From Squalus acanthias (lineage: Eukaryota), in assembly GCA_030390025.1 (NCBI GenBank), contig JASTWF010000329.1, positions 124,001 to 188,000 of the forward strand: DNA of 64,000 bases, written 5' to 3'. The stretch's first letter is position 1; each line of letters starts with the position of its first letter. Below are positions 1-63,060 of the stretch, in pieces. The notes beneath the pieces are model-generated. The model was not told the DNA's origin, searched no databases, and saw nothing but the letters and a program-made list of their open reading frames with translations. The position numbers were made by a program, and so were the translations under genes.

Positions 1-2295
1 TTCCCCATCCCCGGGAGGCACAGGTCGGACAGACTCGGCTGTCTCACCCTCCCGAGGGACAGACGACCCCTGCCGATCGCGCGCGACGATGACGGTGGTG
101 GGGTGGGGCGCAGCACCCGCGGCGGGCGACTGCCCCCCTTTTGCGGAGGGACCTTCCTCCTCGCAGTCCTCCTGCTGGGGGCGGAGCTTTCTTTTTAACG
201 TATTGGGGCCCGGAGAGGGGGAGGCCTCCATGTCTGCTGGGGCCTCCCTCTCTGCCCCCTTCCGACGACTGGGTTTCTTGGGCCCCTCGGGCCCGAGCCC
301 GGCCGCAGGTCTTGATTCAGCTGCCTCAGCAGTTGCGGTCACGGTCACGGGCCCGGGCACGAGGACCCCCCCAGTCTCATGCGTCCCGACCAACTCCGCG
401 ATATACTCGGGCGTGAGTTCGGCCAATTCAGATGTTTCCTCCGCGAGGGGATCCGCCCTTATGTGTTTATTTTTCCTACGCGCCTTCCTTCCCCCCGGAC
501 GCTCTCCCTCCTCCCCGCCGGAGGCCGTGGTGGTGTTGGCCTCCGATTCCGACCGCGCATCCGTCGCCGTGCGGACAGCATCAGGGGGAGGGGGGGTGGC
601 GGCGCCAACCCTGGCCGCGCCAGGTGTCGTGGCGGCCTTGGAGGCGGGGCAGTTTTTGCGGACGTGCCCCACCTCCTTACAGGCGTAGCACCGCACGCCG
701 TCCGAGGTCCAGAAGACGCGGTGGGCGGTCCCCCCGTGGAGCACCGTGAACGCGCCGTCCGCGTCCTCCTCCCGCGCCAGCCGGACGAAAAGCTGGCGCC
801 GGAAGGAGAAGACGTGCCGAAGGCTGGCTTCCCGGAAGCCGAGCGGGATGGGTGTGATCCCCGACCTCACCTCCCCCAGTTGACGTAGGTGGGGGAGGAG
901 GAGCTCACCCGGAACAAAGGGCGGGACGTTGGAAACCACAATCCTTTGCGCGGTGGCCTCAAGGGGGTCCACCGGCAGGAAGGTCCCGCCCACGGTGAGC
1001 CCCTTCTCGATGGCCAGGGACACCGCCCGCTCCGACCCCAGGAAGAACACAGCCTTGCCGTACATTTTAGAGGCGGCGACGATGGCTGAAGGGCCGACAA
1101 CCCCAGCCATGGCTTTTACACACGCCTCTATAGTCATGTTGGGGTGAGTGTAGCTCTTGACCCCATTCTTCCTCGTAAGGAGGGTAAAAGGTGACGGGGT
1201 AACAGGAGGACTCGTGGCTGCGGCCGTGGCCGCGGCTGCCACGCTTGCGTACGTCCTCGCTGCCCCCGCCACCGACGAAGATGTACTCGCCATAATGGAG
1301 GGTTCTTTAAGGGCTACACTCACCCCAAGTCACAGGCCTGAAGGTGTTAATGGCCTCGGTTTTTTTTTTGTTTTCCCCCGAGCAGAGGGAGCTCTTAAAT
1401 TGAAGGCACACCTCTCCCTTTAGTTGATTGAATTGGGAGAGGGGCCTTCTCCCCTCTGCTCAATGGGTACTTAATTAAAATAGATTGAGGTGCCTCTTAG
1501 AGAGAGAGGCAGAGAGAGACAAGAGACAAAGAGAGAGAGAGAGAGGGGGGTGGGAAGGAGGGAAGCCGCAAGGGCAGGGTCGCCACTCAGGATGGTGGGT
1601 GGGTGGGTGTTGGCAGGGGGGTGCACTCTCCGATGTAATACAAGTCTTTGGTGGTGGTCTTCTGGTGGGGGGAGAAGATGTCTTCACCTGGGATAGCTGG
1701 AGATGCCCAGGCTCAGTCCTGCACCAGGTCTTAACGATGCCCAATTGGATTAAATTAATTGGGGAACTTCACCTAGGCAGCTCCAGCTGTCCCAGGTCAG
1801 GCAATGGGAAAGGGGTGTTTAATATGGTGTGTGCGGCCTAGCTTTTACAGAAGCCACACACACACACGCCCCTTGGATGTTCCGGCCTTCTTCTTGTCTT
1901 CTTTCCTCCCCCCACCTACAAAACAAAGTCTCTGGGAGAGTGCCCCAGAATCACACCCACCTGTAGCTGATATTCTTTCCTTCCTTCCTCCTTCCAAACA
2001 GATGATGTTTTGTTGTTTTCTCCCCTCTCTCCCTCTCCTAAAATGGAGGCCAATTGAGGAGGCAGTGTGGAAAGGCCTCTCCTCTGTTGTTAATGGCCTT
2101 GGCCTTCCTTTCCTTCTTTTCCTTCTCCTCTCCTGTCCTCTCTCTCCAGGCACCTCAGTTGTGGATGTGTTGGTTGTTGGTGGTGGGCTGTTGGCTGGTC
2201 TCCTTCTCCTTCTCCTCTTCCTGCTCACAGAGACCACCACTCTGCTGCTGCTGCTGCTCACCACAAGCTTGTGATTTCAAATAAAGCTGTTGGAC
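1..2295 (-). mobile_element. Tx1-clade non-LTR retrotransposon, copy 1 (5' UTR and ORF1 N-terminal part; runs off left edge)
   Basis: Near-identical to 7164-9464 at an offset of about 7169 bp. ORF1 ATG at 1293 on the minus strand, and the frame appears open to the window edge. It includes the CYACKEVGHVRKNC zinc knuckle. Confidence 0.93.
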
Positions 2296-2378
2296 TATAA
2301 CCTGGTGTTGATCTTTTTGGTTTGACAGAACGCAAATTTACTGTAAATCAATTAAAACTTGAAATGAAACTTAATAAA

Positions 2379-5300
2379 TCAAATTAAAATTTGAAAGTCC
2401 GGGGTGACGATGCACTCCAGTCCCCGCGGCGCCCACCGGTCGCGGAAAAACTCAAGCGTGCCGGCGGACACAGCGTGCTCCATCTCCAGGGCCACCCGGG
2501 CGCGAACATGGCCGCGGAAGAGAGGCAGGCAATCGGGCCGAACGACCCCCTCGACCGCCCGCTGCCTGGACCAATTAATGGCTTTCTTGGCCAGGCCCAG
2601 GAGCAGTCCTACGAGGAGGTCCTCCGACCTACCCGCTCCCCTCCGCACCGGGTGACCGTAGATCAGGAGCGTGGGGCTGAAGTGCAACCAGAAATTGAGG
2701 AGCAGCCCCTTCAAATAATGAAAGAGGGGCTGCAACCTCTCACATTCAACATAAATGTGATAAACGGACTCCTCCAGGCCGCAAAAATGGCAAGCAGCCT
2801 GGGAGTCCGTAAACCTACTTAAAATCCTATTGCACGGGACTGCTCCGTGCAACACCCTCCAGGCCAAGTCCCCAATAGAACAAGGGAAGACTCCCGCGTA
2901 GAGAGCCTTCCAATGGGGACCTTCGCCTCCGCCGGACGGCAGGATGGTACGCCAAGGCGTGTCCGGACGGCAGACGAAGATGGCAAAGTGGAGAGTGTGC
3001 AGGAGCAGCCCGTACAGGAAACGCCTCCGTGCGGATTGAAAGGGCACGGAGGGCATTTCTCCGAGAAGGCTCAAGTGGTGAGGCGGCGGCTCCCGAGGGA
3101 GGATTCGGGGCCGGGCGCCGATAAGGAATTCCGTCCGAACGGGGGTCAGTTCGGACGGGATCGCCCCACGTGCTTGAGCCTCCTCGACACACCTAGTGGA
3201 GACGGGGCCCAGTGCCACTTTTAGCGACTCGATGGCTTTGACCGCGAGCCGGACGTTGACCCAAGACATGCGCCTCGCCAACTCCTCCGGCGCCATCCAG
3301 CCCGCTCCTCCGCCATCGAGCAGGTCCCCGACTCTGGTCACCTTACCGGGCACAGCCCTGCCCTCCGCCAGCCAGCCGAACCCGCGGTCGTGGAGGTGCG
3401 GATTCCTGAACAGCGGCTCCCGAAGGACGGCCGCCGCTCCTGACGGGGGAGAACTGCGCTCGGAGGCGACGCTGTTCCAAACCCATAGCAGTTCCTGGTA
3501 GAAGACAGGCAGCTCCCGCAGGCTGGCACGCGTGCCACCCACTCTCACAAACAGGAGCTGCGTGTCGTAATTGAGGCCGTGCAGCTGGCGGAAGAAATAC
3601 GTCGCCAGCGCACGCCACCTAGGAGGATTCTCCACGTACAGGTATCTCTGCAGCGTCTGAAGACGGAAAGTCGCCGCCTGGGTGCGAAGGCACACCAGCG
3701 CCTGACCGCCCTCCCTAAGCGGGAGACTCAAAACCGCGGCAGAGACCCAGTGCTTCCTTTTGTCCCAGAAGAAGTCGACGAGCTTCTTCTGCATCTTGGC
3801 GACAAACGCAGGGGGAGGGATCAAAGTGACCAACCGGTACCACAACATGGCGGCCACCAGCTGGTTTATGACCAGCGCTCGACCCCTGTAGGACAACACT
3901 CGGAGCAGTCCTGTCCAGCGTCCTAGGCGAGCGGTGACTTTGGCCTCCAGCTCTTGCCAGTTCGCCGGCCAGGCGTCCTCGGCCGGGCTGAGGTAGACTC
4001 CCAGGTAGAGGAGGTGCGTGGTGCTCCAGGCGAAAGGCCCGAACTCCTCCGGCAGGGAGTCCACCTGCCATGGGCCCACCAGGAGTCCAGAACATTTCTC
4101 CCAGTTGATCTTGGCGGAGGATGCGTCCGAGTAAATCTGCTGGCATTCTCGCATCCTCCGCAAGTCGACGGGATCCGTGACCGCGAGGAGCACGTCATCG
4201 GCGTAAGCCGAGAGGACCACCTCCACGCCCGGCCCTTGCAGAGCCAGTCCCGTCAACCTCTTCCGCAAGAGGCGCAGGAAAGGCTCCACGCAAACGGCGT
4301 ATAACTGACCGGACATGGGGCATCCCTGACGCACCCCCCTCCCGAAGCGAAGGGGCGCCGTCAAAGACCCGTTAACTTTAATCAGACACTCCGCGGCGGC
4401 GTACAGAAGTCGGATCCGGGCGACGAAATGCGTCCCGAACCCGAATGCGCGCAGAGTCCCGAAAAGATACTCGTGATCCACCCTGTCGAACGCCTTCTCC
4501 TGATCCAGGGAAAGGAAGGCGACCGACAGACCAGCCCTCTGGGAATGGTGGACCAGGTCCCGGACCAGATGGATGTTATCGTGGATACTCCGGCCCGGGA
4601 CCGTGTAGGACTGGTCGGGGTGGATCATGCGGGCCAGCACGGTGCCAAGGCGAGCAGACATAGCCCTGGCGAAAATTTTGTAGTCCGTGCTGAGGAGGGA
4701 GACCGGGCGCCAGTTCTTAAGTAGGCGGAGATCGCCCTTCTTGGGCAGCAGGACGATGACCGCCCTGCGCCAAGAGAGGGGCATCTCCCCGGTCGCCAGA
4801 CTTTCCCCCAGGACCCGCGCGTAGTCGTCCCCCAAGACGTCCCAGAACGCCCTGTGGAACTCCACGGTCAGCCCGTCCAGCCCCGGGGACTTGCCCCTCG
4901 AGAGCTGGCGCAGGGCGCCGGTCAGCTCCGCCAGGCTTAGCGGAGCTTCTAAATTCTCGGCGCCCTCCGGGCCGACCTTCGGCAGGTCCTCCCACAAAAC
5001 TCTGCGCGCATCCTCGCTGGACGGATCCGAAGAGAACAGAGCCCCGTAATAGGCCCGGGCCTCCGCGCTGATGCCCTCCGGATCCGAGACCAGAGATCCG
5101 TCGTCGGCCAGCAGCCCCAAGAGCTGCTTACGGACCCCCCGTCTTTTTTCCAGCGAGTAGAAGAAGGGGGAGCCGCGGTCCAGGTCCCGCAGGAACTGGA
5201 TCCGCGACCTCACGTACGCGCCTCGGGACCCGACCAGCTGCAGGTCCTTCAGCGCGCCCTTCTTCTCTTCGTACACCTTCCGCAGGGCCGGGTCCTCGAC

Positions 5301-6279
5301 GACCTGACCGAGACAGGACTCCAGGTCGAGCACTTCTTTCTCCAATCGCCCGACCCGGGCCTCCCGCCTCTTGGTCGACCCCTTCGCGTACTCCTGACAG
5401 AAGACGCGGACGTGAGCCTTGCCCACGTCCCACCATAGCCTCAAGGAGGGGAAGCCTCCCCGCTTCCTTCTCCAGTCGGCCCAGAACCGGCGAAACGAAT
5501 CCCGGAACCGCGCGTCCTCCAGCAGCAGGTTGTTAAAATGCCAGTACGCGGACCCCCCCCCGCGCGCGCAGCGGAGCGAGCTCCGCCCACACCAGGTGGT
5601 GGTCCGTGCACGGCACCGGCCGCATGGAAGCCGCCGGAACGCAGGAGACGTACGCCCGGGAAATGTAAAGGCGGTCGATTCTGGACCTTCCTCCTCCAGA
5701 CCTCACGCTCGTGAAGGCGCTGGAGTCGGGATGGAGATTTCGCCAGACGTCCACCAAGTCGAAGGACCCGACCAGGTCCCGCAACTTCTCCATCGCCGCC
5801 GGGCTTCGCGGGGGACCCGACCGGTCCCGCGCCTCGAGGGTACAATTGAAATCCCCCCCGAGGATGACGCACTCGCCCACGTCGATGGAGCCCAGAAGAG
5901 CGGACACTTCTCCGAAGAAGCGCACTTGCTGCGCACCGGTCCGGGGGGCGTACACGTTCACTAAATGGAGCGGCACGCCTCCCAGGCGAACAGTGACCTG
6001 GAGCAAGCGGCCCGGCACGTGCTCCTTGACCCTCAAGATCTCCGGCTGAAAATGCGGGGCCAGCAAGACAGCCACCCCGCAGGAATTGTTGGAGAGGTGA
6101 CTCATGCTGACCCCTCCTTGCCACTCCAGGAGCCACGTGGCCTCGTCTCCCGGAACGGTGTGGGTTTCTTGCAGGAAGCACACCGCATATTTCCCGTCCC
6201 GAAGGACCGAGAAGTTATTGAATCTACGGCGCGCCTCCCTGCTGCCGTTGATGTTGAGGCTGGCTATGGTTATCTTCAT
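2379..6279 (-). CDS. Tx1 ORF2: APE endonuclease + reverse transcriptase + C-terminal CCHC; one frameshift in a G-run near 5553-5561
   Basis: Endonuclease motifs MKITIASLNING, FLQETH, GGDFN, SRIDRLY and TDHH in ORF 5533-6297. RT motifs KSPGLDG, NWRPVSLL, LDQEKAFDRV, GVRQGCP and YADD, plus CHFCGLEESVYHIYVEC, in ORF 2379-5444. Removing one G joins the two frames. Confidence 0.93.
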
Positions 6280-6304
6280 CTCAGAAGCATAGTGCAACCT
6301 CTAC

Positions 6305-8462
6305 CTAACGGAGGGGAGGGAGGGCGGTCACTGACGACCGCCACTCCCTCAGCAGCCCAGTGTGGAACGTCTTGAGCCGACGCAGCTCGAGCCGGCCAAC
6401 GTCCTTGTCCGCGCCCATGATTTTAACGGCGGCGCGGACGGACACGACGAGCAGCGCCAGCTCCGACCACTTGTCGAGGGCCAGCCGGATCTTCTTGTGA
6501 CGACCCTGGCTCACGGCCATAAAATCCCGGAGTTCCCCTACGGGGATGAGGGGAGAGTCGGTGAAGGGCACGAGGGCGTCCATCACCTCGCTGCCGATGG
6601 ACTCCAAATCGTCCTCGATGCCCCCCACCGAGTCCCCGTCCTCCTCCGGGAGGTCGTCACCGGCGGCCAACCCGTCCGTCACACAGGGTGCAGCGAACGG
6701 CTCGGCCGCACCGGCCGGCCCCGCCTCCGTCACGATCCCACCCCCAGGATCGGTGGCAGAGGAGTCCACCCTGGGCTCCTTCAGGGGCGCCGGGCCGGGA
6801 GGCGGCGGCGGCGGTTCGGGGCCCCCCCCCCGCCTCAGGCGCCGGGGCGACCGGAGAAACCGGGGAGAAAATAATCCCAAATTCCTCCAGCACGTCCGGC
6901 GCCAACAACAGAGACGGAGTCAGGGGGCTTTCCGTCTCCCCGCCACCAACCTCCGACCCAGCGGGCTGGGGATTGCTACACTCCTCCACCAGGTCGAGCA
7001 GTCCCTGGGAGATATCTGGGTTATAAAAGGCGGGCTCGGCTTCAGCCTCTTTGGCCTCGCCCGCCCCAGTCCCCAGGACGCCCGACCCGGCGAGGAGCAA
7101 CGGTTCAGGTTCTACATTTCCCTCCGCGGGTTGTTCCGCGCCCCCCCCCACGGGCAGGGTCTCTTCCCCATCCCCGGGAGGCACAGGTCGGACAGACTCG
7201 GCTGTCTCACCCTCCCGAGGGACAGACGACCCCTGCCGATCGCGCGCGACGATGACGGTGGTGGGGTGGGGCGCAGCACCCGCGGCGGGCGACTGCCCCC
7301 CTTTTGCGGAGGGACCTTCCTCCTCGCAGTCCTCCTGCTGGGGGCGGAGCTTTCTTTTTAACAAATTGGGGCCCGGAGAGGGGGAGGCCTCCATGTCTGC
7401 TGGGGCCTCCCTCTCTGCCCCCTTCCGACGACTGGGTTTCTTGGGCCCCTCGGGCCCGAGCCCGGCCGCAGGTCTTGATTCAGCTGCCTCAGCAGTTGCG
7501 GTCACGGTCACGGGCCCGGGCACGAGGACCCCCCCAGTCTCATGCGTCCCGACCAACTCCGCGATATACTCGGGCGTGAGTTCGGTCAATTCTGATGTTT
7601 CCTCCGCGAGGGGATCCGCCCTTAGGTGTTTAGTTTTCCTACGCGCCTTCCTTCCCCCCGGACGCTCTCCCTCCTCCCCGCCGGAGGCCGTGGTGGTGTT
7701 GGCCTCCGATTTCGACCGCGCATCCGTCGCCGTCGACGCGCGGACAGTATCAGGGGGAGGGGGGGCGGCGGCGCCAACCCTGGCCGCGCCAGGTGTCGTG
7801 GCGGCCTTGGAGGCGGGGCAGTTTTTGCGGACGTGCCCCACCTCCTTACAGGCGTAGCACCGCACGCCGTCCGAGGTCCAGAAGACGCGGTGGGCGGTCC
7901 CCCCGTGGAGCACCGTGAACGCGCCATCCGCGTCCTCCTCCCGCGCCAGCTGGACGAAAAGCTGGCGCCGGAAGGAGAAGACGTGCCGAAGGCTGGCTTC
8001 CCGGAAGCCGAGCGGGATGGGTGTGATCCCCGACCTCACCTCCCCCAGTTGACGTAGGTGGGGGAGGAGGAGCTCACCCGGAACAAAGGGCGGGACGTTG
8101 GAAACCACAATCCTTTGCGCGGTGGCCTCAAGGGGGTCCACCGGCAGGAAGGTCCCGCCCACGGTGAGCCCCTTCTCGATGGCCAGGGACACCGCCCGCT
8201 CCGACCCCAGGAAGAACACAGCCTTGCCGTACATTTTAGAGGCGGCGACGATGGCTGAAGGGCCGACAACCCCAGCCATGGCTTTAACGCACGCCTCTAT
8301 AGTCATGTTGGGGTGAGTGTAGCTCTTGACCCCATTCTTCCTCGTAAGGAGGGTAAAAGGTGACGGGGTAACAGGAGGACTCGTGGCTGCGGCCGTGGCC
8401 GCGGCTGCCACGCTCGCGTACGTCCTCGCTGCCCCCGCCACCGACGAAGATGTGCTCGCCAT
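6305..8462 (-). CDS. Tx1 ORF1 (nucleic-acid-binding protein with zinc knuckle); one frameshift in a G10 run at 6822-6831
   Basis: MASTSSS start, ASKMYGKAVFFL / VVSNVPPF region and CYACKEVGHVRKNC. The C-terminal part continues in frame 6305-6880 and ends just before the ORF2 start. Confidence 0.88.
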
Positions 8463-9433
8463 AATGGAGGGTTCTTTAAGGGCTACACTCACCCCAAGTC
8501 ACAGGCCTGAAGGTGTTAATGGCCTCGGTTTTTTATTTTGTTTCCCCTGAGCAGAGGGAGCTCTTAAATTGAAGGCACACCTCTCCCTTTAGTTGATTGA
8601 ATTGGGAGAGGGGCCTTCTCCCCTCTGCTCAATGGGTACTTAATAAAAAGTAATTGAGGTGCCTCTTAGAGAGAGAGGCAGAGAGAGACAAGAGACAAAG
8701 AGAGAGAGAGAGGGGGGTAGGAAGGAGGGAAGCCGCAAGGGCAGGGTCGCCACTCAGGATGGTGGGTGGGTGGGTGTTGGCAGGGGGGTGCACTCTCCGA
8801 TGTAATAAAAGTCTTTGGTGGTGGTCTTCTGGTGGGGGGAGAAGATGTCTTCACCTGGGATAGCTGGAGATGCCCAGGCTCAGTCCTGCACCAGGTCTTA
8901 ACGATGCCCAATTGGATATAATTAATTGGGGAACTTCACCTAGGCAGCTCCAGCTGTCCCAGGTCAGGCAATGGGAAAGGGGTGTTTAATATGGTGTGTG
9001 CGGCCTAGCTTTTACAGAAGCCACACACACACACACCCCTTGGATGTTCCGGCCCTCTTCTTTTCTTCTTTCCTCCCCCCACCTACAAAACAAAGTCTCT
9101 GGGAGAGTGCCCCAGAATCACACCCACCTGTAGATGTTGTTCTTTCCTTCCTTCCTCCTTCCAAACAGATGATGTTTGTTGGTGATGTTTTTCTCCCCTC
9201 TCTCCCTCTCCTAAAATGGAGGCCAATTGAGGAGGCAGTGTGGAAAGGCCTCTCCTCTGTTGTTAATGGCCTTGGCCTTCCTTTCTTTCCTCTCTCCTCT
9301 CCTGTCCTCTCTCTCCAGGCACCTCAGTTGTGGTTGTTGGTTGTTGGTGGTGGTCTGCTGTCTGGTCTCCTTCTCCTTCTCCTCTTCCTGCTCACAGAGA
9401 CCACCACTCTGCTGCTGCTGCTTCAGCAGCTCG

Positions 9434-9531
9434 AAGCTTGTGATTTCAAATAAAGCTGTTGGACTATAACCTGGTGTTGTGCGACTTCTCATTTTTGTCC
9501 ACCCCAGTCCAACACCGGCATCTCCGCATCA
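9434..9531 (+). mobile_element. Penelope-type terminal repeat (pLTR) 3' fragment, the Tx1 target
   Basis: AAGCTTGTGATTTCAAATAAAGCTGTTGGACTATAACCTGGTGTTG...CCAGTCCAACACCGGCATCTCCGCATCA. Homologous to 18745-18850 and to 47392-47459 plus 48282-48360, the latter carrying a hammerhead. Absent from the paralogous site at about 62313. The Penelope assignment is from recall of the motif. Confidence 0.75.
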
Positions 9532-9636: not shown

Positions 9637-10420
9637 CCCCCATTTACAGTCCCAGGGCTGAAATTCCCATGTACAGTCCCAGGGTTAGAATCCCCATGAA
9701 CAGTCCCAGGGTTGGAATCCCCATGTACAGTCCCAGGGTTGGAATCCCCATGTACAGTCCCAGGGTTTGAATCCCCATGTACAGTCCCAGGGTTAGAATC
9801 CCCATGTACAGTCCCAGGGTTAGAATCCCCATGTACAGCCCCAGGGTTGGAATCCCCATGTACAGTCCCAGGGTTAGAATCCCCATGTACAGTCCCAGGG
9901 TTAGAATCCCCATGTACAGTCCCAGGTTAGAATCCCCATGTACAGTCCCAGGGTTAGAATCCCCATGTACAGTCTCGGTTAGAATCCCCATGTACAGTCC
10001 CAGGGTTAGAATCCCCATGTACAGTCCCAGGGTTAGAATCCCCATGTACAGTCCCAGGGTTAGAATCCCCTTGTACAGTTCCAGGGTTGGAATCCCCATG
10101 TACAGTCCCAGGGTTAGAATCCCCATGCACAGTCCCAGGGTTGGAATCCCCATGTACAGTCCCAGGGTTGGGATCCCCATGTGCAGTTCCAGGGTTGGAA
10201 TCCCCATGTACAGTCCCAGGGTTAGAATCCCCATGTACAGTCCCAGGGTTGGAATCCCCATGTACAGTCCCAGGGTTGGGATCCCCATGCACAGTTCCAG
10301 GGTTGGAATCCCCATGTACAGTCCCAGGGTTAGAATCCCCATGTACAGTCCCAGATTTGGAATCCCCATGTACAGTCCCAGGGTTGGAATCCCCATGTAC
10401 ATTCGCAGGGCTGGAACCCT
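9637..10420. repeat. 27-bp minisatellite (ATCCCCATGTACAGTCCCAGGGTTRGA), ~29 copies
   Basis: Direct tandem repeat. The same array precedes the other type-A ZNF exons. Confidence 0.97.
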
Positions 10421-11011: not shown

Positions 11012-12133
11012 ATGGAAGCAGAAAGCACCGTTCAGAGCGGGGAGAAACCGTACACATGTTCTGTGTGTGGACGAGGCTTCAGCCGATCCTCTTGCCTGTC
11101 GAGACACAAGCGCAGTCACACCGGGGAGAGGCCGTTCACCTGCTCCGAGTGTGGGAAGGGATTCACTCAGTCATTCCACCTGCTGACACACCAGCGAGTT
11201 CACACTGACGAGAGACCTTTTAAATGTCAGGACTGCGGGAAGTGCTTTAAAAGTTCCAGGGAACTGACACTCCATCATAGTGTTCACACTGACAAGAGAC
11301 CGTTCAGGTGCTCTCACTGCGGGACTGGGTTTAGGCGATCATCTGACTTCACTGTACACCAGCGCACTCACACCGGGGAGAGGCCGTTCACTTGCTCTGA
11401 GTGTGGGAAGGGATTCACTCGGTCATCCAGCCTGCTGACACACCAGCGAGTTCACACTGGGGAGAGGCCGTTCACCTGCTCTGACTGTGGAACAGGATTC
11501 ACTCGGTCATCCGACCTGCTGATACACCAGCGAGTTCACACCGGGGAGAGGCCTTTTAAATGCCCGGTCTGTGGAAAGTGTTATAAAAGTTCCAGCGAAC
11601 TGATGTCCCATCAACGTGCTCACACTGACGAGAGACCGTTCAGGTGCTCTCATTGCGGGACTGGGTTCAGGCGATCATCTGAACTCACTGTACACCAGCG
11701 CACTCACACCGGGGAGAGGCCGTTCACCTGCTCTGAGTGTGGGAAGGGATTCACTCGGTCATCCAGCCTGCTGACACACCAGCGAGTTCACACTGGGGAG
11801 AGGCCATTCACCTGCTCTGAGTGTGGGAAGGGATTCACTCAGTCATCCAACCTGCTGAAACACCAGCGAGTTCACACTGGGGAGAGACCGTTCACCTGCT
11901 CTGAGTGTGGGAAGGGATTCACTCGGTCATCCGACCTGCTGACACACCAGCGAGTTCACACTGGGGAGAGGCCGTTCACCTGCTCCGAGTGTGGGAAGGG
12001 ATTCACTCGGTTATGCAACCTGTTGACACACCAGCGAGTTCACACTGGGGAGGGGCCGTTCACCTGCTCCGTGTGTGGGAAGGGATTCACTCATTCATCC
12101 AACCTGCTGACACACCAGCGAGTTCACAAGTGA
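11012..12133 (+). CDS. C2H2 zinc-finger protein, type A copy 1 (13 fingers)
   Basis: 13 CxxC-x12-HxxxH fingers with TGERP linkers. Polypyrimidine tract and TTTTACAG acceptor ending at 10919. ATG at 11012. Confidence 0.93.
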
Positions 12134-18744: not shown

Positions 18745-18850
18745 TCATAATGCGGAGATGCCGGTGTTGGACTGAGGTGGACAAAATTGAGAGCTTGTGA
18801 TTTCAAATAAAACTGTTGGACTATAACCTGGTGTTGTGGGACCTCTCAAT
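18745..18850. mobile_element. Short inverted Penelope-type pLTR insertion with 12-bp TSD
   Basis: TTTGGATTTCAG at both 18733-18744 and 18851-18862. The paralog at about 37905-37920 is empty. The two halves of the pLTR are in opposite orientation. Confidence 0.8.
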
Positions 18851-19128
18851 TTTGGATTTCAGCACAGGGAGGAGGGAGAGTGTGTGGGATGGAGATTTAC
18901 AGCTTTGGGGGAACAAGAGAGGAAAGAATGTTCCATAGAAACTAGAATTGTCTGTTCTGAATTTCTATCCTCTACTCAGTGATGTCTTTTGTAAACTCCT
19001 TTGACAGGCTGTGAGAAGGGGAGGATTGACAGACAGGAAACTCAAACCAAACATCATTTGAAGATCTGACAGAGTCACTCCATTCATCAGGACCTGAATA
19101 TCATCGGCCTTTGAATGTGGAAGGAGAA

Positions 19129-25640: not shown

Positions 25641-26249
25641 TGATGACCTGTCTGCAGTGAAGCGTCTGTTTGAGTTTTGAACTGAGGCGAACTTCTCTTT
25701 CCCAGGAGGAGAGACGAGAGAAACTGGGGCACTTCTCACTCGAACAAAGCAGGGTAAGAGATGTGAGCGAGGTGTTTAAACTTGTTCAAGGACACCGACC
25801 AAAATATCAGAGACACTCCGTGTCCTTCAGGACCAGTGTCCAGGGGAGAAGCTGATGGGTTTATCAGATCATCTTTGGGTTAAATGTTGTGCTCATGGAG
25901 CTGAGCCCCTAGTGTCAGCATCAAACACTCTCCAGTCGGGTACAGCACGGGTTAGATACAGAGTAAACCCATCACCCGCTACCCGACACAGATACCGAGG
26001 GACAGGGAGTGTCCGGGACAATGACATTTCTCACTCAACAAGGTATAAATTGATCCTGTACCTCTCCCCATTAATCCTGGGCTCCACACGGGGCGAATCC
26101 TGCTCCTGTTTCCCTTCCTGGAACAGCACTGAGCTAAACCCAGCCCATAATGAGCAGGGCTCAGGGAGGTTGGTTGCTGGGCACTGCAGTGATGTCATAA
26201 AGCAGGGCCATTCAACCAAGCTGGTCGTCTCCTTGTCCCTTTAAAGGTG

Positions 26250-29200
26250 GAGAGCGGAGACACCCTGTCTCAAAACACACCCCACCTGTTCATACTGAGA
26301 ATCCCCGGGCAAGGCCCAAGGCCCAGAGTGTGGACACACCCCGGGGTAAAAGAGGAGGAGAACGGAGACACCCTGTCTCAAAACACACCCCACCTGTTCA
26401 TACTGAGAATCCCCAGGCAAGGCCCAAGGCCCAGAGTGTGGACACACCCCGGGGAAAAGAGGAGGAGAGCGGGGACACCCTGTCTCAAAACACACCCCAC
26501 CTGTTCATACTGAGAATCCCCGGGCAAGGCCCAAGGCCCAGAGTGTGGACACACCCCGGGGAAAAGAGGAGGAGAGCGGGGACACCCTGTCTCAAAACAC
26601 ACCCCACCTGTTCATACTGAGAATCCCCGGGCAAGGCCCAAGGCCCAGAGTGTGGACACACCCCGGGGAAAAGAGGAGGAGAGCGGGGACACCCTGTCTC
26701 AAAACACACCCCACCTGTTCATACTGAGAATCCCCGGGCAAGGCCCAAGGCCCAGAGTGTGGACACACCCCGGGGAAAAGAGGAGGAGAGCGGAGACACC
26801 CTGTCTCAAAACACACCCCACCTGTTCATACTGAGAATCCCCGGGCAAGGCCCAAGGCCCAGAGTGTGGACACACCCCGGGGAAAAGAGGAGGAGAGCGG
26901 GGACACCCTGTCTCAAAACACACCCCACCTGTTCATACTGAGAATCCCCGGGCAAGGCCCAAGGCCCAGAGTGTGGACACACCCCGGGGAAAAGAGGAGG
27001 AGAGCGGAGACACCCTGTCTCAACACACACCCCACCTGTTCATACTGAGAATCCCCGGGCAAGGCCCAAGGCCCAGAGTGTGGACACACCCCGGGGGAAA
27101 AGAGGAGGAGAGCGGAGACACCCTGTCTCAAAACACACCCACCTGTTCATACTGAGAATCCCCAGGCAAGGCCCAAGGCCCAGAGTGTGGACACACCCCG
27201 GGGAAAAGAGGAGGAGAGCGGGGACACCCTGTCTCAAAACACACCCCACCTGTTCATACTGAGAATCCCCGGGCAAGGCCCAAGGCCCAGAGTGTGGACA
27301 CACCCCGGGGAAAAGAGGAGGAGAGCGGAGACACCCTGTCTCAAAACACACCCCACCTGTTCATACTGAGAATCCCCGGGCAAGGCCCAAGGCCCAGAGT
27401 GTGGACACGGCCCAGAGTGTGGACACACCCCGGGGAAAAGAGGAGAGCGGGGACACCCTGTCTCAAAACACACCCCACCTGTTCATACTGAGAATCCCCG
27501 GGCAAGGCCCAAGGCCCAGAGTGTGGACATACCCCGGGGAAAAGAGGAGGAGAGCGGGGAAACCCTGTCTCAAAACACACCCCACCTGTTCATAGTGAGA
27601 ATCTCCGGGCAAGGCCCAAGGCCCAGAGTGTGGACACACCCCAGGGAAAAGAGGAGGAGAGCGGGGACACCCTGTCTCAAAACACACCCCACCTGTTCAT
27701 ACTGAGAATCCCCGGGCAAGGCCCAAGGCCCAGAGTGTGGACACACCCCGGGGGAAAGAGGAGGAGAGCGGGGACACCCTGTCTCAAAACACACCCCACC
27801 TGTTCATACTGAGAATCCCCGGGCAAGGCCCAAGGCCCAGAGTGTGGACACACCCCGGGGAAAAGAGGAGGAGAGCGGAGACACCCTGTCTCAACACACA
27901 CCCCACCTGTTCATACTGAGAATCCCCGGGCAAGGCGCAAGGCCCAGAGTGTGGACACGGCCCAGAGTGTGGACACACCCCGGGGAAAAGAGGAGGAGAG
28001 CGGGGACACCCTGTCTCAAAACACACCCCACCTGTTCATACTGAGAATCCCCGGGCAAGGCCCAAGGCCCAGAGTGTGGACACACCCCGGGGAAAAGAGG
28101 AGGAGAGCGGAGACACCCTGTCTCAAAACACACCCCACCTGTTCATACTGAGAATCCCCGGGCAAGGCCCAAGGCCCAGAGTGTGGACACACCCCGGGGA
28201 AAGAGGAGGAGAGCGGGGACACCCTGTCTCAAAACACACCCCACCTGTTCATACTGAGAATCCCCGGGCAAGGCCCAAGGCCCAGAGTGTGGACACACCC
28301 CGGGGAAAAGAGGAGGAGAGCGGGGACACCCTGTCTCAAAACACACCCCACCTGTTCATACTGAGAATCCCCGGGCAAGGCCCAAGGCCCAGAGTGTGGA
28401 CACACCCCGGGGAAAAGAGGAGGAGAGCGGGGACACCCTGTCTCAAAACACACCCCACCTGTTCATACTGAGAATCCCCGGGCAAGGCCCAAGGCCCAGA
28501 GTGTGGACACACCCCGGGGAAAAGAGGAGGAGAGCGGAGACACCCTGTCTCAAAACACACCCCACCTGTTCATACTGAGAATCCCCGGGCAAGGCCCAAG
28601 GCCCAGAGTGTGGACACACCCCGGGGAAAAGAGGAGGAGAGCGGGGACACCCTGTCTCAAAACACACCCCACCTGTTCATACTGAGAATCCCCGGGCAAG
28701 GCCCAAGGCCCAGAGTGTGGACACACCCCGGGGAAAAGAGGAGGAGAGCGGGGACACCCTGTCTCAAAACACACCCCACCTGTTCATACTGAGAATCCCC
28801 GGGCAAGGCCCAAGGCCCAGAGTGTGGACACACCCCGGGGAAAAGAGGAGGAGAGCGGGGACACCCTGTCTCAAAACACACCCCACCTGTTCATACTGAG
28901 AATCCCCGGGCAAGGCCCAAGGCCCAGAGTGTGGACACACCCCGGGGAAAAGAGGAGGAGAGCGGGGACACCCTGTCTCAAAACACACCCCACCTGTTCA
29001 TACTGAGAATCCCCGGGCAAGGCCCAAGGCCCAGAGTGTGGACACACCCCGGGGAAAAGAGGAGGAGAGCGGGACACCCTGTCTCAAAACACACCCCACC
29101 TGTTCATACTGAGAATCCCCGGGCAAGGCCCAAGGCCCAGAGTGTGGACACACCCCGGGGAAAAGAGGAGGAGAGCGGGGACACCCTGTCTCAAAACACA

Positions 29201-32200
29201 CCCCACCTGTTCATACTGAGAATCCCCGGGCAAGGCCCAAGGCCCAGAGTGTGGACACACCCCGGGGAAAAGAGGAGGAGAGCGGGGACACCCTGTCTCA
29301 AAACACACCCCACCTGTTCATACTGAGAATCCCCGGGCAAGGCCCAAGGCCCAGAGTGTGGACACACCCCGGGGAAAAGAGGAGGAGAGCGGAGACACCC
29401 TGTCTCAAAACACACCCCACCTGTTCATACTGAGAATCCCCGGGCAAGGCCCAAGGCCCAGAGTGTGGACACACCCCGGGGAAAAGAGGAGGAGAGCGGG
29501 GACACCCTGTCTCAAAACACACCCCACCTGTTCATACTGAGAATCCCCGGGCAAGGCCCAAGGCCCAGAGTGTGGACACACCCCGGGGAAAAGAGGAGGA
29601 GAGCGGAGACACCCTGTCTCAAAACACACCCCACCTGTTCATACTGAGAATCCCCGGGCAAGGCCCAAGGCCCAGAGTGTGGACACACCCCGGGGAAAAG
29701 AGGAGGAGAGCGGGGACACCCTGTCTCAAAACACACCCCACCTGTTCATACTGAGAATCCCCGGGCAAGGCCCAAGGCCCAGAGTGTGGACACACCCCGG
29801 GGAAAAGAGGAGGAGAGCGGAGACACCCTGTCTCAAAACACACCCCACCTGTTCATACTGAGAATCCCCGGGCAAGGCCCAAGGCCCAGAGTGTGGACAC
29901 ACCCCGGGGAAAAGAGGAGGAGAGCGGGGACACCCTGTCTCAAAACACACCCCACCTGTTCATACTGAGAATCCCCGGGCAAGGCCCAAGGCCCAGAGTG
30001 TGGACACACCCCGGGGAAAAGAGGAGGAGAGCGGGGACACCCTGTCTCAAAACACACCCCACCTGTTCATACTGAGAATCCCCGGGCAAGGCCCAAGGCC
30101 CAGAGTGTGGACACACCCCGGGGAAAAGAGGAGGAGAGCGGAGACACCCTGTCTCAAAACACACCCCACCTGTTCATACTGAGAATCCCCGGGCAAGGCC
30201 CAAGGCCCAGAGTGTGGACACACCCCGGGGAAAAGAGGAGGAGAGCGGGGACACCCTGTCTCAAAACACACCCCACCTGTTCATACTGAGAATCCCCGGG
30301 CAAGGCCCAAGGCCCAGAGTGTGGACACACCCCGGGGAAAAGAGGAGGAGAGCGGGGACACCCTGTCTCAAAACACACCCCACCTGTTCATACTGAGAAT
30401 CCCCGGGCAAGGCCCAAGGCCCAGAGTGTGGACACACCCCGGGGAAAAGAGGAGGAGAGCGGGGACACCCTGTCTCAAAACACACCCCACCTGTTCATAC
30501 TGAGAATCTCCGGGCAAGGCCCAAGGCCCAGAGTGTGGACACACCCCAGGGGAAAAGAGGAGGAGAGCGGGGACACCCTGTCTCAAAACACACCCCACCT
30601 GTTCATACTGAGAATCCCCGGGCAAGGCCCAAGGCCCAGAGTGTGGACACACCCCGGGGGAAAGAGGAGGAGAGCGGGGACACCCTGTCTCAAAACACAC
30701 CCCACCTGTTCATACTGAGAATCCCCGGGCAAGGCCCAAGGCCCAGAGTGTGGACACACCCCGGGGAAAAGAGGAGGAGAGCGGAGACACCCTGTCTCAA
30801 AACACACCCCACCTGTTCATACTGAGAATCCCCGGGCAAGGGCAAGGCCCAGAGTGGACACGCCCAGAGTGTGGACACACCCCGGGGAAAAGAGGAGGAG
30901 AGCGGGGACACCCTGTCTCAAAACACACCCCACCTGTTCATACTGAGAATCCCCGGGCAAGGCCCAAGGCCCAGAGTGTGGACACACCCCGGGGAAAAGA
31001 GGAGGAGAGCGGAGACACCCTGTCTCAAAACACACCCACCTGTTCATACTGAGAATCCCCGGGCAAGGCCCAAGGCCCAGAGTGTGGACACACCCCGGGG
31101 GAAAGAGGAGGAGAGCGGGGACACCCTGTCTCAAAACACACCCCACCTGTTCATACTGAGAATCCCCGGGCAAGGCCCAAGGCCCAGAGTGTGGACACAC
31201 CCCGGGGAAAAGAGGAGGAGAGCGGGGACACCCTGTCTCAAAACACACCCCACCTGTTCATACTGAGAATCCCCGGGCAAGGCCCAAGGCCCAGAGTGTG
31301 GACACACCCCGGGGAAAAGAGGAGGAGAGCGGGGACACCCTGTCTCAAAACACACCCCACCTGTTCATACTGAGAATCCCCAGGCAAGGCCCAAGGCCCA
31401 GAGTGTGGACACACCCCGGGGAAAAGAGGAGGAGAGCGGAGACACCCTGTCTCAACACACACCCCACCTGTTCATACTGAGAATCCCCGGGCAAGGCCCA
31501 AGGCCCAGAGTGTGGACATACCCCGGGGAAAAGAGGAGAGCGGGGACACCCTGTCTCAAAACACACCCCACCTGTTCATACTGAGAATCCCCGGGCAAGG
31601 CCCAAGGCCCAGAGTGTGGACACACCCCAGGGAAAAGAGGAGGAGAGCGGGGACACCCTGTCTCAAAACACACCCCACCTGTTCATACTGAGAATCCCCT
31701 GGCAAGTCCCAACGCCCAGAGTGTGGACACACCCCGGGGAAAAGGAGGAGGAGAGCGGAGACACCCTGTCTCAACACACACCCCACCTGTTCATACTGAG
31801 AATCCCCGGGCAAGACCCAAGGCCCAGAGTGTGGACACACCCCGGGGAAAAGAGGAGGAGAGCGGGGACACCCTGTCTCAACACACACCCCACCTGTTCA
31901 TACTGAGAATCCCCGGGCAAGGCCCAAGGCCCAGAGTGTGGACACACCCCGGGGAAAAGAGGAGGAGAGCGGGGACACCCTGTCTCAAAACACACCCCAC
32001 CTGTTCATACTGAGAATCTCCGGGCAAGGCCCAAGGCCCAGAGTGTGGACACACCCCGGGGGAAAAGAGGAGGAGAGCGGGGACACCCTGTCTCAACACA
32101 TACCTCACCTGTTCATACTGAGAATCCCCGGGCAAGGCGCAAGGCCCAGAGTGTGGACACGGCCCAGAGTGTGGACACACCCCGGGGAAAAGAGGAGAGC

Positions 32201-32750
32201 GGGGACACCCTGTCTCAAAACACACCCCACCTGTTCATACTGAGAATCCCCGGGCAAGGCGCAAGGCCCAGAATGTGGACACACCCCGGGGGAAAAGAGG
32301 AGGAGAGCGGGGACACCCTGTCTCAAAACACACCCCACCTGTTCATACTGAGAATCCCCGGGCAAGGCCCAAGGCCCAGAGTGTGGACACGGCCCAGAGT
32401 GTGGACACACCCCGGGGAAAAGAGGAGGAGAGCGGGGACACCCTGTCTCAAAACACACCCCACCTGTTCATACTGAGAATCCCCGGGCAAGGCCCAAGGC
32501 CCAGAGTGTGGACACACCCCGGGGAAAGAGCAGGAGAGCGGGGACACCCTGTCTCAAAACACACCCCATCTGTTCATACTGAGAATCCCCGGGCAAGGCC
32601 CAAGGCCCAGAGTGTGGACACACCCCGGGGAAAAAAGGAGGAGAGCGGGGACACCCTGTCTCAAAACACACCCCACCTGTTCATACTGAGAATCCCCGGG
32701 CAAGGCCAAGGCCCAGAGTGGACACGCCAGAGTGTGGACACACCCCGGGG
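26250..32750. repeat. 107-bp satellite array, ~60 highly homogeneous copies
   Basis: Unit GGGGACACCCTGTCTCAAAACACACCCCACCTGTTCATACTGAGAATCCCCGGGCAAGGCCCAAGGCCCAGAGTGTGGACACACCCCGGGGAAAAGAGGAGGAGAGC. ORF-track entries recur every 107 bp. Confidence 0.98.
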
Positions 32751-42610: not shown

Positions 42611-42734
42611 CCTATGCCCCGGCCCCTCTGCGCTGGAGTTCCCCACAAGCAGCTGGGCCTCTCACTCAACGCCCCGGCCCCTCCGCACTGGCAGCTGGGC
42701 CTCTCGCTATCGCCCCTGCCCCTCCGCACTGGGA

Positions 42735-44152
42735 TAAGAGGAACATTCTTTGTTCCAGTCCTACTCAGGTCTCCTCCCTCACCTCTTTTTCTGGTACATT
42801 GATGACTGTATTGGTGCCGTTTCCTGCTCTCACCCTGAACTAGAAAATTTCATTCACTTTGCTTCCAATTTCCACCCTTCACTCACCTTCACATGGTCCA
42901 TCTCTGACTCTTCCCTTCCCTTCCTCGACTTCATTGTCTCCATTTCTGAGGATAGGCTATCGACAAACATCCGCTATAAGCCCACAGCTAACTGGACTAC
43001 ACTTCCTCCCACCCCACTTTCTGTAAGGACTCTATTCCATTCTCACAGCTTCTCCGTCTCCGCCGCATCTGTTCTGATGATGCCACCTTCCATACGAGTG
43101 CTTCCGATATGCCTTCCTTTTTCTTCAACTGAGGATTCCCCTCTACCGTGGTTGGCATGGCCCTCAACCGTATCCGTCCATTTCCAGCACTTCTGCTCTC
43201 ACCCCATCCCCTCCCTCCCAGAACCACGATAGGGTTCCCCTTGTCCTCAGTTTCACCCTACCAGCCTTCACATTCAACGGATCATCCTTCGCCATTTCCG
43301 CCACCTCCAGCGTGATCCCACCACCAAACGCATCTTCCCCTCACCTCCCCTTACAGCATTCCGAAGGGACCGCTCCCTCCGCAGCACCCTGGTCCAGTCC
43401 TCAATCACCCCCAACAGCCCCTCCCCTGCCCACGGTACCTTCCCGTGCAAGCGCAGGAGATGCAACACCTGCCCTTTTACCTCCTCCCTTCCCACTGTCC
43501 AGGGCCCCAAACACCCCTTCCAGGTGAAACAGCGATTTACTTGTACTTCTTGCAATTTAGTATACTGTATTCGCTGCTCACGATGCAATCTCCTCTACAC
43601 TGGGGAGACCAAACGCAGATTGGGTGACCGCTTTGCCGAACACCTCCGTTCAGTCCGTAAGGGTGACCCCGAGCTTCCGGTCACTTGTCACTTTAACTCT
43701 CCGCTCCACTCACACTCAGACCTCTCCGTCCTCGGCCTCTTACATTGTTCCAAAGAAGCTCAAAGTAAGATCGAGGAACAGCACCTCATCTTTTGTTTAG
43801 GCACTTTACAGCCTTCTGGACTCAGCTTTGAGTTCAACAATTTCAGACTATAACCCCTGCCCCTATTTTTTCAGCTGTTGATGATTCTGCCATCCCCATT
43901 TGCAACATTTAACCACTCCTGCCTTCCACCCAATCACAGACCGTCCCTTTTGTTCTTTCCTCCCCTCCCCCCTTTCCCTGCCTCTGCGCCTGCTTAAAAT
44001 CTGTTACATCTCGAACTTTTCCAGTTCTGACGAAGGGTCACAGACCTGAAACGTTAACTCTGTTTCTCTCTCCATGGATGCTGCCTGACCTGCTGAGTAT
44101 TTCCAGCATTTTCTGTCATTATTTCAGATTTCCAGCATCCGCAGTATTTTGC
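42735..44152 (+). mobile_element. Penelope-like retroelement, 5'-truncated (RT C-terminus, GIY-YIG endonuclease, pLTR)
   Basis: WYIDDCIGA..FHPSLTFT..LPFLD RT motifs and FTCTSCNLVYCIRCSRCNLLYTGETKRRLGDRFAEH GIY-YIG domain. Frameshifted. Confidence 0.92.
44023..44059 (+). ncRNA. Minimal type-I hammerhead ribozyme motif in the Penelope pLTR
   Basis: AGTT-CTGACGA-A-GGGTC aca GACCT-GAAA-CGTT-AACT. Stem I is AGTT/AACT and stem III is replaced by the palindrome AACGTT. Confidence 0.8.
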
Positions 44153-47390: not shown

Positions 47391-47459
47391 CATGATGTGG
47401 AGATGCCGGCGTTGGACTGGGGTGGACAAAAATGAGAAGTCGCACAACACCAGGTTATA

Positions 47460-48281
47460 CGGAATTCCTTATCGGCGCCCGGCCCCGAATCCTCCCTCGG
47501 GAGCCGCCGCCTCACCACTTGAGCCTTCTCGGAGAAATGCCCTCCGTGCCCTTTCAATCCGCACGGAGGCGTTTCCTGTACGGGCTGCTCCTGCACACTC
47601 TCCACTTTGCCATCTTCGTCTGCCGTCCGGACACGCCTTGGCGTACCATCCTGCCGTCCGGCGGAGGCGAAGGTCCCCATTGGAAGGCTCTCTACGCGGG
47701 AGTCTTCCCTTGTTCTATTGGGGACTTGGCCTGGAGGGTGTTGCACGGAGCAGTCCCGTGCAATAGGATTTTAAGTAGGTTTACGGACTCCCAGGCTGCT
47801 TGCCATTTCTGCGGCCTGGAGGAGTCCGTCTATCACATTTATATTGAGTGTGAGAGGTTGCAGCCCATCTTTCATTATTTGAAAGGGCTGCTCCTCAATT
47901 TCTGGTTGCACTTCAGCCCCACGCTCCTGATCTACGGTCACCCGGTGCGGAGGGGAGCGGGTAGGTCGGAGGACCTCCTCGTAGGACTGCTCCTGGGCCT
48001 GGCCAAGAAAGCCATTAATTGGTCCAGGCAGCGGGCGGTCGAGGGGGTCGTTCGGCCCGATTGCCTGCCTCTCTTCCGCGGCCATGTTCGCGCCCGGGTG
48101 GCCCTGGAGATGGAGCACGCGGTGTCCGCCAGCACGCTTGAGTTTTTCCGCGACCGGTGGGCGCCGCGGGGGCTGGAGTGCATCGTCACCCCGGACTTCC
48201 AAATTTTGATTTGATTTATTAAGTTTCATTTAAAGTTTTAATTGATTTACAGTAAATTTTGATTTGTCCAACCAAAAAGAG
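47460..48281 (+). mobile_element. Tx1 copy 3, 5'-truncated (~820 bp) with 15-bp TSD
   Basis: Nearly identical to the ORF2 C-terminus and 3' UTR of copy 2. CAACACCAGGTTATA at 47445-47459 and CAACACCAGGTGATA at 48282-48296. Confidence 0.95.
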
Positions 48282-48317
48282 CAACACCAGGTGATAGTCC
48301 AACAGATTTATTTAATT

Positions 48318-48355
48318 TTACAAGCTTTCGGAGCTGTCGCTCCTTCCTCAGGTAA
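48318..48355 (-). ncRNA. Minimal type-I hammerhead ribozyme motif adjacent to the Tx1 target
   Basis: Minus strand TTAC-CTGAGGA-A-GGAGC gaca GCTCC-GAAA-GCTT-GTAA, with stem I TTAC/GTAA and palindromic AAGCTT. Confidence 0.8.
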
Positions 48356-48674
48356 GTTAGCAGTGAGAGAATCTCCCAGAATTCACAATTTAAACACAGA
48401 CAAAATCTATTCAAATATTTCCCTACATCAAAGACACACTAAGAGCACAGCCAAGACAATGAGATGTGTCCCAGGGGGTCCAACGTGTCAAACCACCTGC
48501 TGGCTGCATATCCTGTCAATTTGTGTTCTTGTGTTAGTCTTTTTAAAAAAAAAAAACACCTGGGAAGACCGGCCATGATGTCAAGTCACGTTCTGTATCG
48601 TGACATGAACCCGATATCGCGATTGAGGCCATCCTCATGAGTGCGGAACTTGGCTAAACTCCAGAGAGGTCGGA

Positions 48675-53700: not shown

Positions 53701-54098
53701 TAGTCGAGTTCCAGATGTATAAAGTCACTCTCCTTCACTCCTCCCCCTCCCACCTCACTCTCTCTCCTCCCATAGAGGCCAGAGTCTTGTGTAAGCCCAG
53801 ACCGGGTGGCGGGTTCCCTTCCCTGAAGGACATTAGTGAACCAGTTGGGTTTTTACGACAATCCGGCAGCTTTCATGGTCACTTTTTTCTAGTGCCGGCC
53901 CCACAAATTCCCAGATTCATTCAGCTCAATTTCACAACCTGCCTTTGTGTTTTTGTGGGTTCTCTCTCACCCTCCCTTTTTCCTGTTTTAAATTCATTTT
54001 GCAGGGTGTCAGAAGGGGAGGATTTGCAGACGGGAAACTCAAACCAAACATCACTTCAAGATCTGACAGAGTCACTCGATTCATCAGGACCTTTGAGC

Positions 54099-62290: not shown

Positions 62291-62436
62291 CCCGGGAGAG
62301 TAAATCAGTGACTCAGTTATTTGATTCAGACTCTCCACACTTCTGATTTCTCACCATCTCTCCTGAAGGCGCTGGTAAAAGCAGAGCAGATGGTTAACAT
62401 CCCACACAATTGTAACAGAAGAGCCCCAGAGCTGGG

Positions 62437-63060
62437 CCCCTTGTACAGTCCCAGGATAGGAATCCCCATGTACAGTCCCAGGGTTAGAATCCCCATGTAC
62501 AGTCCCAGGGTTGGAATCCCCATGTACAGTCCCAGGGATGTAATCTCCATGTACAGTCCCAGGGTTGGAATCCCCAAGTACAGTCCCAGGGTTAGAATCC
62601 CCATGTACAGTCCCAGGGTTGGAATCCCCATGTACAGTCCCAGGGTTAGAATCCCCATGTACAGTCCCAGGGTTGGAATCCCCATGTACAGTCCCAGGGT
62701 TGGAATCCCCATGTACAGACCCAGGGTTAGAATCCCCATGTACAGTCCCAGGGTTGGATTCCCCATGTACAGTTCCAGGGTTAGAATCCCCATGTACAGT
62801 CCCAGGGTTGGAATCCCCATGTACAGTCCCAGGGTTGGAATCCCCATGTACAGTCCCAGGGTTGGAATCCCCATGTACAGTCCCAGGGTTGGAATCCCCA
62901 TGTACAGTCCCAGGGTTAGAATCCCCATGTACAGTCCCAGGGTTAGAATCCCCATGTACAGTCCCAGGGTTGGAATCCCCATGTACAGTCCCAGGGTTAG
63001 AATCCCCATGTACAGTCCCAGGGTTGGAATCCCCATGTACAGTCCCAGGGTTGGAACCTT
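62437..63060. repeat. 27-bp minisatellite, ~23 copies
   Basis: Same unit as 9637-10420. Confidence 0.96.

Follow-up and report, generated by a model that had tools for sequence, protein, structure and literature searches.

The window analysed here is a stretch of 64,000 nucleotides from the shark Squalus acanthias (contig JASTWF010000329.1, positions 124,001 to 188,000; C2550:124001-188000 by the contig label of our analysis) in a genome of 3.7 Gb, and the coordinates listed follow the numbering of the window. Its left end holds part of a head-to-tail array of a Tx1-type long interspersed nuclear element (LINE), and a solo copy lies further right (Table 1). An earlier note on this DNA described the long copy as bracketed by a 46-bp exact direct repeat. 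This is indeed the case, with 2265-2310 equal to 9434-9479 and neither side extendable; read on the minus strand, the repeat consists of the 15-bp target site duplication (TSD) followed by 31 nt of downstream target, here called the leader, which stands ahead of the 5´ untranslated region (UTR) in both long copies, as the note had said. It was also right that the two copies are not identical: 1-2310 and 7164-9479 are 97.2% identical over 2325 columns, with 42 mismatches and 9 gap openings. The truncated copy has its 15-bp TSD, with one mismatch between 47445-47459 and 48282-48296. The reported remnant of a hammerhead 3´ half, CAGCTCGAAGCTT, is present, but at 9427-9439, so that the start given for it (9426) was one base off; the CUGANGA box is missing on that (+) strand, and the remnant at 9423..9439 is therefore not a complete ribozyme. 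Extension to the left, proposed in the note as a check, revealed exactly three 7.17-kb units; the array terminates beyond the left edge of the window, in an intact hammerhead half whose downstream bases differ from the unit leaders at two places.

Table 1. Features of the LINE array, the solo copy and their targets in the window.
Feature	Position	Strand	Remark
Upstream target half: 3´ tail of Penelope-like element, antisense	9480..9531	-	Unique flank starts past 9531
15-bp TSD at array head, re-targeted 5´ junction	9465..9479	-	
31-nt target-like leader of head unit, element-borne	9434..9464	-	Two bases differ from the array's own downstream target
Hammerhead 3´-half remnant at joint of leader and 5´ UTR	9423..9439	+	Variant joints occur in other copies
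Full-length Tx1-type unit, head of three	2311..9464	-	Neighbour's 5´ end not copied by head
5´ UTR, ~1 kb, with (GCA)n, (GA)n and (GT)n tracts	8463..9422	-	
Open reading frame (ORF) 1, zinc knuckle	6657..8462	-	601 aa, frame break at G run near 6831; 716 aa in both neighbour units
ORF2, apurinic endonuclease (APE) + reverse transcriptase (RT) + zf-RVT	2379..6279	-	Frame break at G run near 5561; 1299 aa in both neighbour units
Internal 15-bp TSD, 3´ end of head unit / next unit	2296..2310	-	
Leader of middle unit	2265..2295	-	
Middle unit, 5´ part, running on left of window	1..2264	-	First ~0.9 kb and leader type common to tail unit, not head
5´ TSD of solo truncated copy	47445..47459	+	
Solo 5´-truncated copy, leaderless	47460..48281	+	
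3´ TSD (one mismatch) and downstream target half	48282..48357	+	Hammerhead-like motif on minus strand
Empty target within inverted Penelope-like remnant	18750..18854	.	

On sequence grounds, the inserted element is a young, Tx1L-like LINE of the Tx1 clade, lying antisense in the hammerhead-bearing end of a Penelope-like element. ORF2 matches the Pfam models Exo_endo_phos (6e-13), RVT_1 (3.6e-38) and zf-RVT (2.8e-5), and ORF1 matches zf-CCHC at 22.1 bits, above the cut-off; a CCHC zinc knuckle in ORF1 is a feature of the Tx1 clade. The top named match of full coverage in the protein search ranking was YTX2_XENLA, the ORF2 of Xenopus laevis Tx1L (51%, E 2.9e-255). The likeness to Tx1L amounts to 51% identity over the 801 aa bearing the RT and 48% in the endonuclease, with fish relatives at 35-39%. 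The 1299-aa ORF2 is found in 69 of 105 full-length units and both frames are open in 38 of them; the head unit in the window is broken in both, and its two breaks at G runs may be assembly slips. Of the 105 units, 71 come from arrays and 31 from a set of 40 solo candidates, with 3 others added; one unit with an assembly gap was left out, and five solo candidates turned out to be array members. Insertion is site-specific and produces a TSD, as seen in 931 + 25 exact junctions of 3´ end and TSD genome-wide (reversed-pattern control, 0); these are exact on-target junctions only, and L152 and L171 have aberrant 3´ junctions. The exact 5´ UTR motif has 421 matches genome-wide.

The target appears to be the 3´ end of a Penelope-like element, read antisense and entered at one fixed 15-bp site. 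It contains a minimal hammerhead composed of CUGANGA, one extra base, a 5-bp stem II, GAAA, a palindromic GC, UU and a 4-bp stem I, and stem II is paired in 88 of 91 distinct cores. These traits fit the minimal hammerhead ribozymes of PMC4209133 (here and below, published work is cited from the accessible portions of each source), and no hammerhead family in Rfam matched the target. In L109, L120, L206 and L223, ORFs of 270-425 aa on the target side end 225-340 nt upstream of the repeat. They are RT-like (RVT_1 5.7e-5, below the cut-off) and gave no match to a GIY-YIG model, WYIGET and CX4CxxC motifs being read by eye only; the latter, so read, fits the Neptune linker of PMC8557442. Penelope-like insertions are characteristically truncated, tandem or inverted, and inverted junctions are numerous among 103 flanks. 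The Penelope-like tail is identical in kind ahead of array heads and of solo copies, and the uninterrupted 25-mer target has 94,566 exact matches in the genome, including a few hundred leader-bearing heads. In two places (C2:164562550/164562682 and C4:152277724/152277816), an inverted Penelope remnant has an insertion in each of its arms, the copies lying tail-to-tail ~100 bp apart.

What neighbours in an array have in common lies at their 5´ ends. At 11 of 15 loci with truncated copies, the same start base is found in all units, or in all but the head (within 2 nt in the nine-unit L225); the remaining cases are a trimer with starts at 6742, 6761 and 6742, one repeated compound of a full-length and a truncated copy, and two loci with a full-length copy ahead of a short one. 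Each truncated array has its own start base, and none recurs at two loci. The 3´-end types of these neighbours differ, and 69 of the 109 differences between them are family-wide alleles, seen at least 2 times elsewhere, which implies that the donors of neighbouring units differ. An array might instead have been written in one event, by RT jumping between RNAs or copying a multi-unit read-through RNA. R2 protein is reported to make head-to-tail repeats by tandem template copying (PMC11371274), and the RNA 5´ end of the shark element likely reaches into the TSD, since four of five leaderless solo copies mismatch their own target at TSD base 12. Independent RNAs, however, have no cause to stop at the same internal base, let alone at one that is unique to each array, and tails are older than heads (see below), making this explanation very improbable.

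Among full-length neighbours, the exact 5´ junction is common to 27 of 49, compared with 73 of 2362 between-array pairs (24 of 34 vs 37 of 1307 on chromosome-scale contigs alone). The 3´ type matches in 12 of 49 neighbours and in 393 of 2362 pairs between arrays (p=0.17), and the ratio of neighbour to between-array divergence, 0.47 at the 5´ end, climbs along the element to reach 0.88 at the 3´ end. When the first 0.7 kb is compared, 44 of 70 units have their closest relative in their own array; in the 3´ half this number is 7 of 70 (2.4 at random). Array-private variants shared inside an array number 16, 8, 6, 1, 3, 1 and 0 per successive kb from the 5´ end, while singletons are flat, and a shared 5´ tract of at least 400 nt (0.4-5.4 kb) is present in 15 of 49 neighbours vs 8 of 2362 others. 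At L063/L064 a compound head, consisting of a tiny and a truncated copy, is duplicated entire. Shared 5´ junctions and truncation points would also result from local duplication of a unit, by unequal exchange or TSD slippage, if gene conversion, or recombination with cDNA starting at the 3´ junction, afterwards replaced the 3´ parts. Three of 23 truncated pairs are without a substitution difference, long arrays have few private changes, and unequal exchange has been proposed for the expansion of transposable element (TE) dimers (PMC5932611). Yet two rare steps would be required at nearly every junction, neighbours resemble each other in 3´ type no more than unrelated copies do, and neither younger heads nor heads unlike the rest of their array (L225, C2a, C8b) are predicted; we consider such duplication unlikely. 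Circle integration was rejected, as it predicts unshared 5´ junctions.

Private substitutions past position 3000 number 26 in heads and 56 in tails of 11 complete arrays (p=0.012), which supports statistically that the 5´-most unit is the newest and that arrays grow at the 5´ junction. In the window trio, the overall numbers are 2 for the head, 5 for the middle and 11 for the tail unit, making the head the youngest. Insertion at the 3´ junction, formed by the element end and the TSD, with copying of the front of the upstream resident, predicts the same sharing of junctions. A haplotype test for which unit of a pair is chimeric gave 9 vs 5 (p=0.42), and the 6742/6761/6742 trimer could be accounted for by insertion at the 3´ junction, while strict 5´ growth needs a later deletion there. 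Against this stand the younger heads and the fact that the upstream target bases present at array heads and solo copies are missing from the 3´ junction, so that growth at the 3´ side has very little probability.

The leader itself was found in 22 and was absent in 8 of the full-length 5´ ends at the first 30 5´ UTR matches in contig order; 2 of the 8 have common flanks. The earlier note had suggested solitary full-length copies as a test, and among 26 with both ends resolved (from 40 candidates) the leader is present in 21 and absent in 5. Fifteen of these 21 differ from their own downstream target within the 46 nt, the other 6 being identical and uninformative, and in L134 and L150 the leader is complete even though the downstream part is absent from their own target. 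The leader is therefore element-borne and inherited. A long variable TSD as its general source is ruled out by the same 15 copies and holds at three loci only, namely L140, L141 and the mini-copy L169, in the leaders of which private variants of the local target occur. At these loci 5´ joining must have involved homology beyond the TSD, and the suggestion of the note that target homology may aid joining is thus borne out in some cases. In most relatives the leader extends ~20 nt past the 31 nt and closes with a short stretch of the hammerhead 5´ half in inverted orientation. Leader ends are numerous; several resemble joints of downstream target with a leaderless 5´ UTR, and the commonest type ends in the inverted hammerhead piece, like the inverted remnants of Penelope itself. 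We infer that the leader arose by repeated target capture at 5´ junctions and is now inherited and optional. Two other candidates were dropped: the use of a C at base 10 downstream to mark the leader, because empty targets have C, T or A there, and an element-strand hammerhead cutting the RNA 5´ end, for which inspection showed a CUGACGA box without a GAAA partner and the fold showed none.

According to the earlier note, the leader restores the full target at the 5´ junction, and for that reason the next insertion occurs there. The leader is element-borne at the majority of 5´ ends and arrays do grow on the 5´ side, and these parts stand. The tandem share is also slightly higher with the leader, 88 of 199 copies of the commonest leader type (44%) being preceded by another copy compared with 31 of 87 leaderless ones (36%), but the difference is not significant (p=0.19). 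Arrays are formed by leaderless 5´-truncated copies as well: a search for the 3´ end followed by TSD and non-G returned 25 junctions, of which 22, at 15 loci, are then followed by a truncated leaderless copy, and at L227 and L228 full-length copies lie on the upstream side of leaderless truncated ones. (The corresponding search for truncated heads, using upstream target, TSD and non-G, returned mostly variant empty targets, with the element at 1 of 30 loci.) Since leaderless full-length and truncated copies tandem too, the leader is not what makes arrays. The rebuilt site would, moreover, be one among 94,566, and the shared truncation bases would be left unexplained. As the cause of arrays the leader is largely refuted, and we regard this explanation as improbable. 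Upstream target and TSD, which any insertion leaves behind, would seem to suffice for re-insertion.

A restored site is not the whole explanation. A tandem neighbour lies one unit away at 26 of the first 100 3´ junctions, where 0.23 would be expected (~22,000 free sites in the span), and because tandem junctions exceed chance roughly 100-fold, a regenerated site alone is insufficient; the draw of insertions back to occupied sites needs more. The observations to be accounted for are the fixed insertion base, the 15-bp TSD and the orientation antisense to the Penelope element, the upstream target and TSD that stay intact on the 5´ side of any insertion, and the presence of copies with leader, without leader and with truncation in arrays. 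We propose that arrays grow at the 5´ junction and that the new cDNA pairs with the resident element and takes over its front end, a reading that the comparisons make probable. The predicted endonuclease would need upstream target and TSD only; a nick in the bottom strand would be followed by reverse transcription, and the new cDNA, being complementary to the resident just downstream, could anneal to it at a variable point and be finished by copying the resident back to the TSD. The resulting unit would be a chimera of a new 3´ end and an inherited 5´ end, with shared tracts of up to 5.4 kb. A cDNA that does not anneal to the resident would join in the TSD or the leader and found a new junction type, and at an empty site the leader would offer the cDNA the same annealing handle. 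Rescue of unfinished cDNAs in this manner would explain the favoured occupied sites as well as the many full-length copies. One intriguing possibility, to which we give an even chance, is that the favourite landing site of this LINE is its own copy, with the resident as repair template and occupied sites beating ~95,000 free ones by two orders of magnitude. At C5:87,208,6xx (the L192-L194 join), a 200-nt 5´ fragment lies between two TSD-like sites within an array and may represent copy-back with almost no cDNA; the head of a compound array on C5 falls in an assembly gap.

Several points weigh against growth by pairing with the resident, in addition to the haplotype test and the trimer described above. 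The junction is not common to 22 of the 49 full-length neighbours, including the head unit in the window. The first 150 nt of truncated arrays contain 13 differences vs 11.4 expected, and with no deficit near the junction the copied tract must there be short or unseen. In the middle of the element, neighbours are still somewhat more alike than unrelated copies (ratio 0.63-0.70), and unequal exchange or gene conversion may thus contribute, most of all in C18 and C914, which are long arrays. The number of tandems expected by chance presumes that all 94,566 sites are equally open, and the preference for occupied sites could instead come from open chromatin at the element promoter; truncated residents, which are promoterless, are re-targeted less (on a rough estimate in 22 or more cases out of ~535 or fewer, where chance would give 0.5%). 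Finally, the basis is a comparison of genome sequences, and among contigs from sequencing runs none bridges a junction.

Parts of this picture have precedents. In Drosophila, R1 arrays have a 14-bp TSD between units and form by insertion at the 5´ TSD of the resident, and target sequence present in some R1 RNAs anneals to allow 5´ joining (PMC2718515). The shark units are likewise separated by the TSD at the normal site, but R1 carries upstream target where the shark element carries downstream target, and R1 has hundreds of sites in ribosomal DNA compared with ~95,000 free sites here. An inherited resident 5´ end or truncation base was not found for R1 in the accessible portion of PMC2718515. 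The TE double insertions of McGurk and Barbash also keep the TSD at tandem junctions, the dimers being seeded by transposition and not by recombination (PMC5932611). Their non-LTR (long terminal repeat) dimers have distinct 5´ truncations, however, whereas neighbours here share them and the independent 5´ ends typical of such dimers are not seen. In R2 anneal-type junctions and L1 templated insertions, integration is completed by base pairing between the 3´ end of the cDNA and homologous DNA located in or close to the target (PMC6895275; PMC11371274; 10.1101/2024.08.27.596794). In those cases the partner is upstream target or a short template close by, whereas the shark cDNA would pair with a whole resident downstream of the nick, over as much as several kb, and would do so repeatedly and in the germ line. 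As to the target, Tx1L inserts into another transposon, Tx1D, and Tx1 elements are known to target transposons (PMC4494074), but the target of the shark element is a hammerhead-bearing Penelope-like end and that of Tx1L a piggyBac-type element. The Tx1 targets listed in the accessible portions of the literature comprise U2, U5, 5S, microsatellites, satellites, Mariner, Harbinger and LTR elements, with no Penelope-like element among them. Inherited 5´ ends have no precedent in the accessible portions of PMC4640811, PMC4370867, PMC5340908 and PMC8557442, and neither inherited truncation points nor a Tx1 element aimed at Penelope were found in the literature searched, which did not extend to Repbase, most subscription papers or supplements (those of PMC4494074 list Tx1 targets). 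Re-insertion at the 5´ TSD is thus known from R1, and the inherited fronts and truncation points and the Penelope-end target are apparently new, within this limited coverage.

Other observations concern the element and its surroundings. At 3´ junctions only (e.g. L137, L139, L164 and L168), TSD base one is repeatedly G instead of C, which suggests that the RNA 3´ end or a non-templated base extends into the TSD. L154 and L169 are mini-copies of 107 and 134 bp with TSDs, in which leader and 5´ UTR start are fused to the last 12 nt of the 3´ end; they may be template jump products or a nascent non-autonomous form. A sister Tx1-type element, ~85% identical, lies antisense at the (GT)n tract of the 5´ UTR, ~450 nt in, at L163, L165 and L166 (C7), three loci with different flanks, and is possibly a LINE targeting this LINE or its microsatellite. 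Some 60 kb left of the array, at C2550:45862 and 53032, the family has a second dimer, which is leaderless. The array sits inside a zinc-finger cluster, window positions 11012-12133 and 53715-55304 being exons of C2H2 zinc-finger genes. Positions 42700-43900 hold the decayed ORF of a Penelope-like element that belongs to another family and has a different end repeat, and minisatellites are found at 9640-10400, 26230-32300 and 62300-63150 (a ~21-bp unit in two tracts and a 107-bp unit in ~57 copies).

The 5´ joining of LINEs, together with second-strand priming, is the least understood step of retrotransposition (PMC6895275). The arrays described here hold hundreds of germ-line events with a marked template beside the nick, and the sequence allows tract lengths and switch points to be mapped. 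They illustrate how tandem repeats of kilobase units can come from a LINE with no need for unequal crossing-over, and through them the list of Tx1 targets gains a Penelope ribozyme repeat. If our reading is true, the arrays log, unit by unit, the points at which cDNA paired with chromosomal DNA; they would then constitute a natural record of 5´ joining in an APE LINE through pairing of cDNA with the uncut top strand downstream of the nick, and reveal a route to full-length copies that is independent of RT processivity. If homology by the nick rescues short cDNAs, this would also be of relevance to full-length insertions in LINE-based gene writing.

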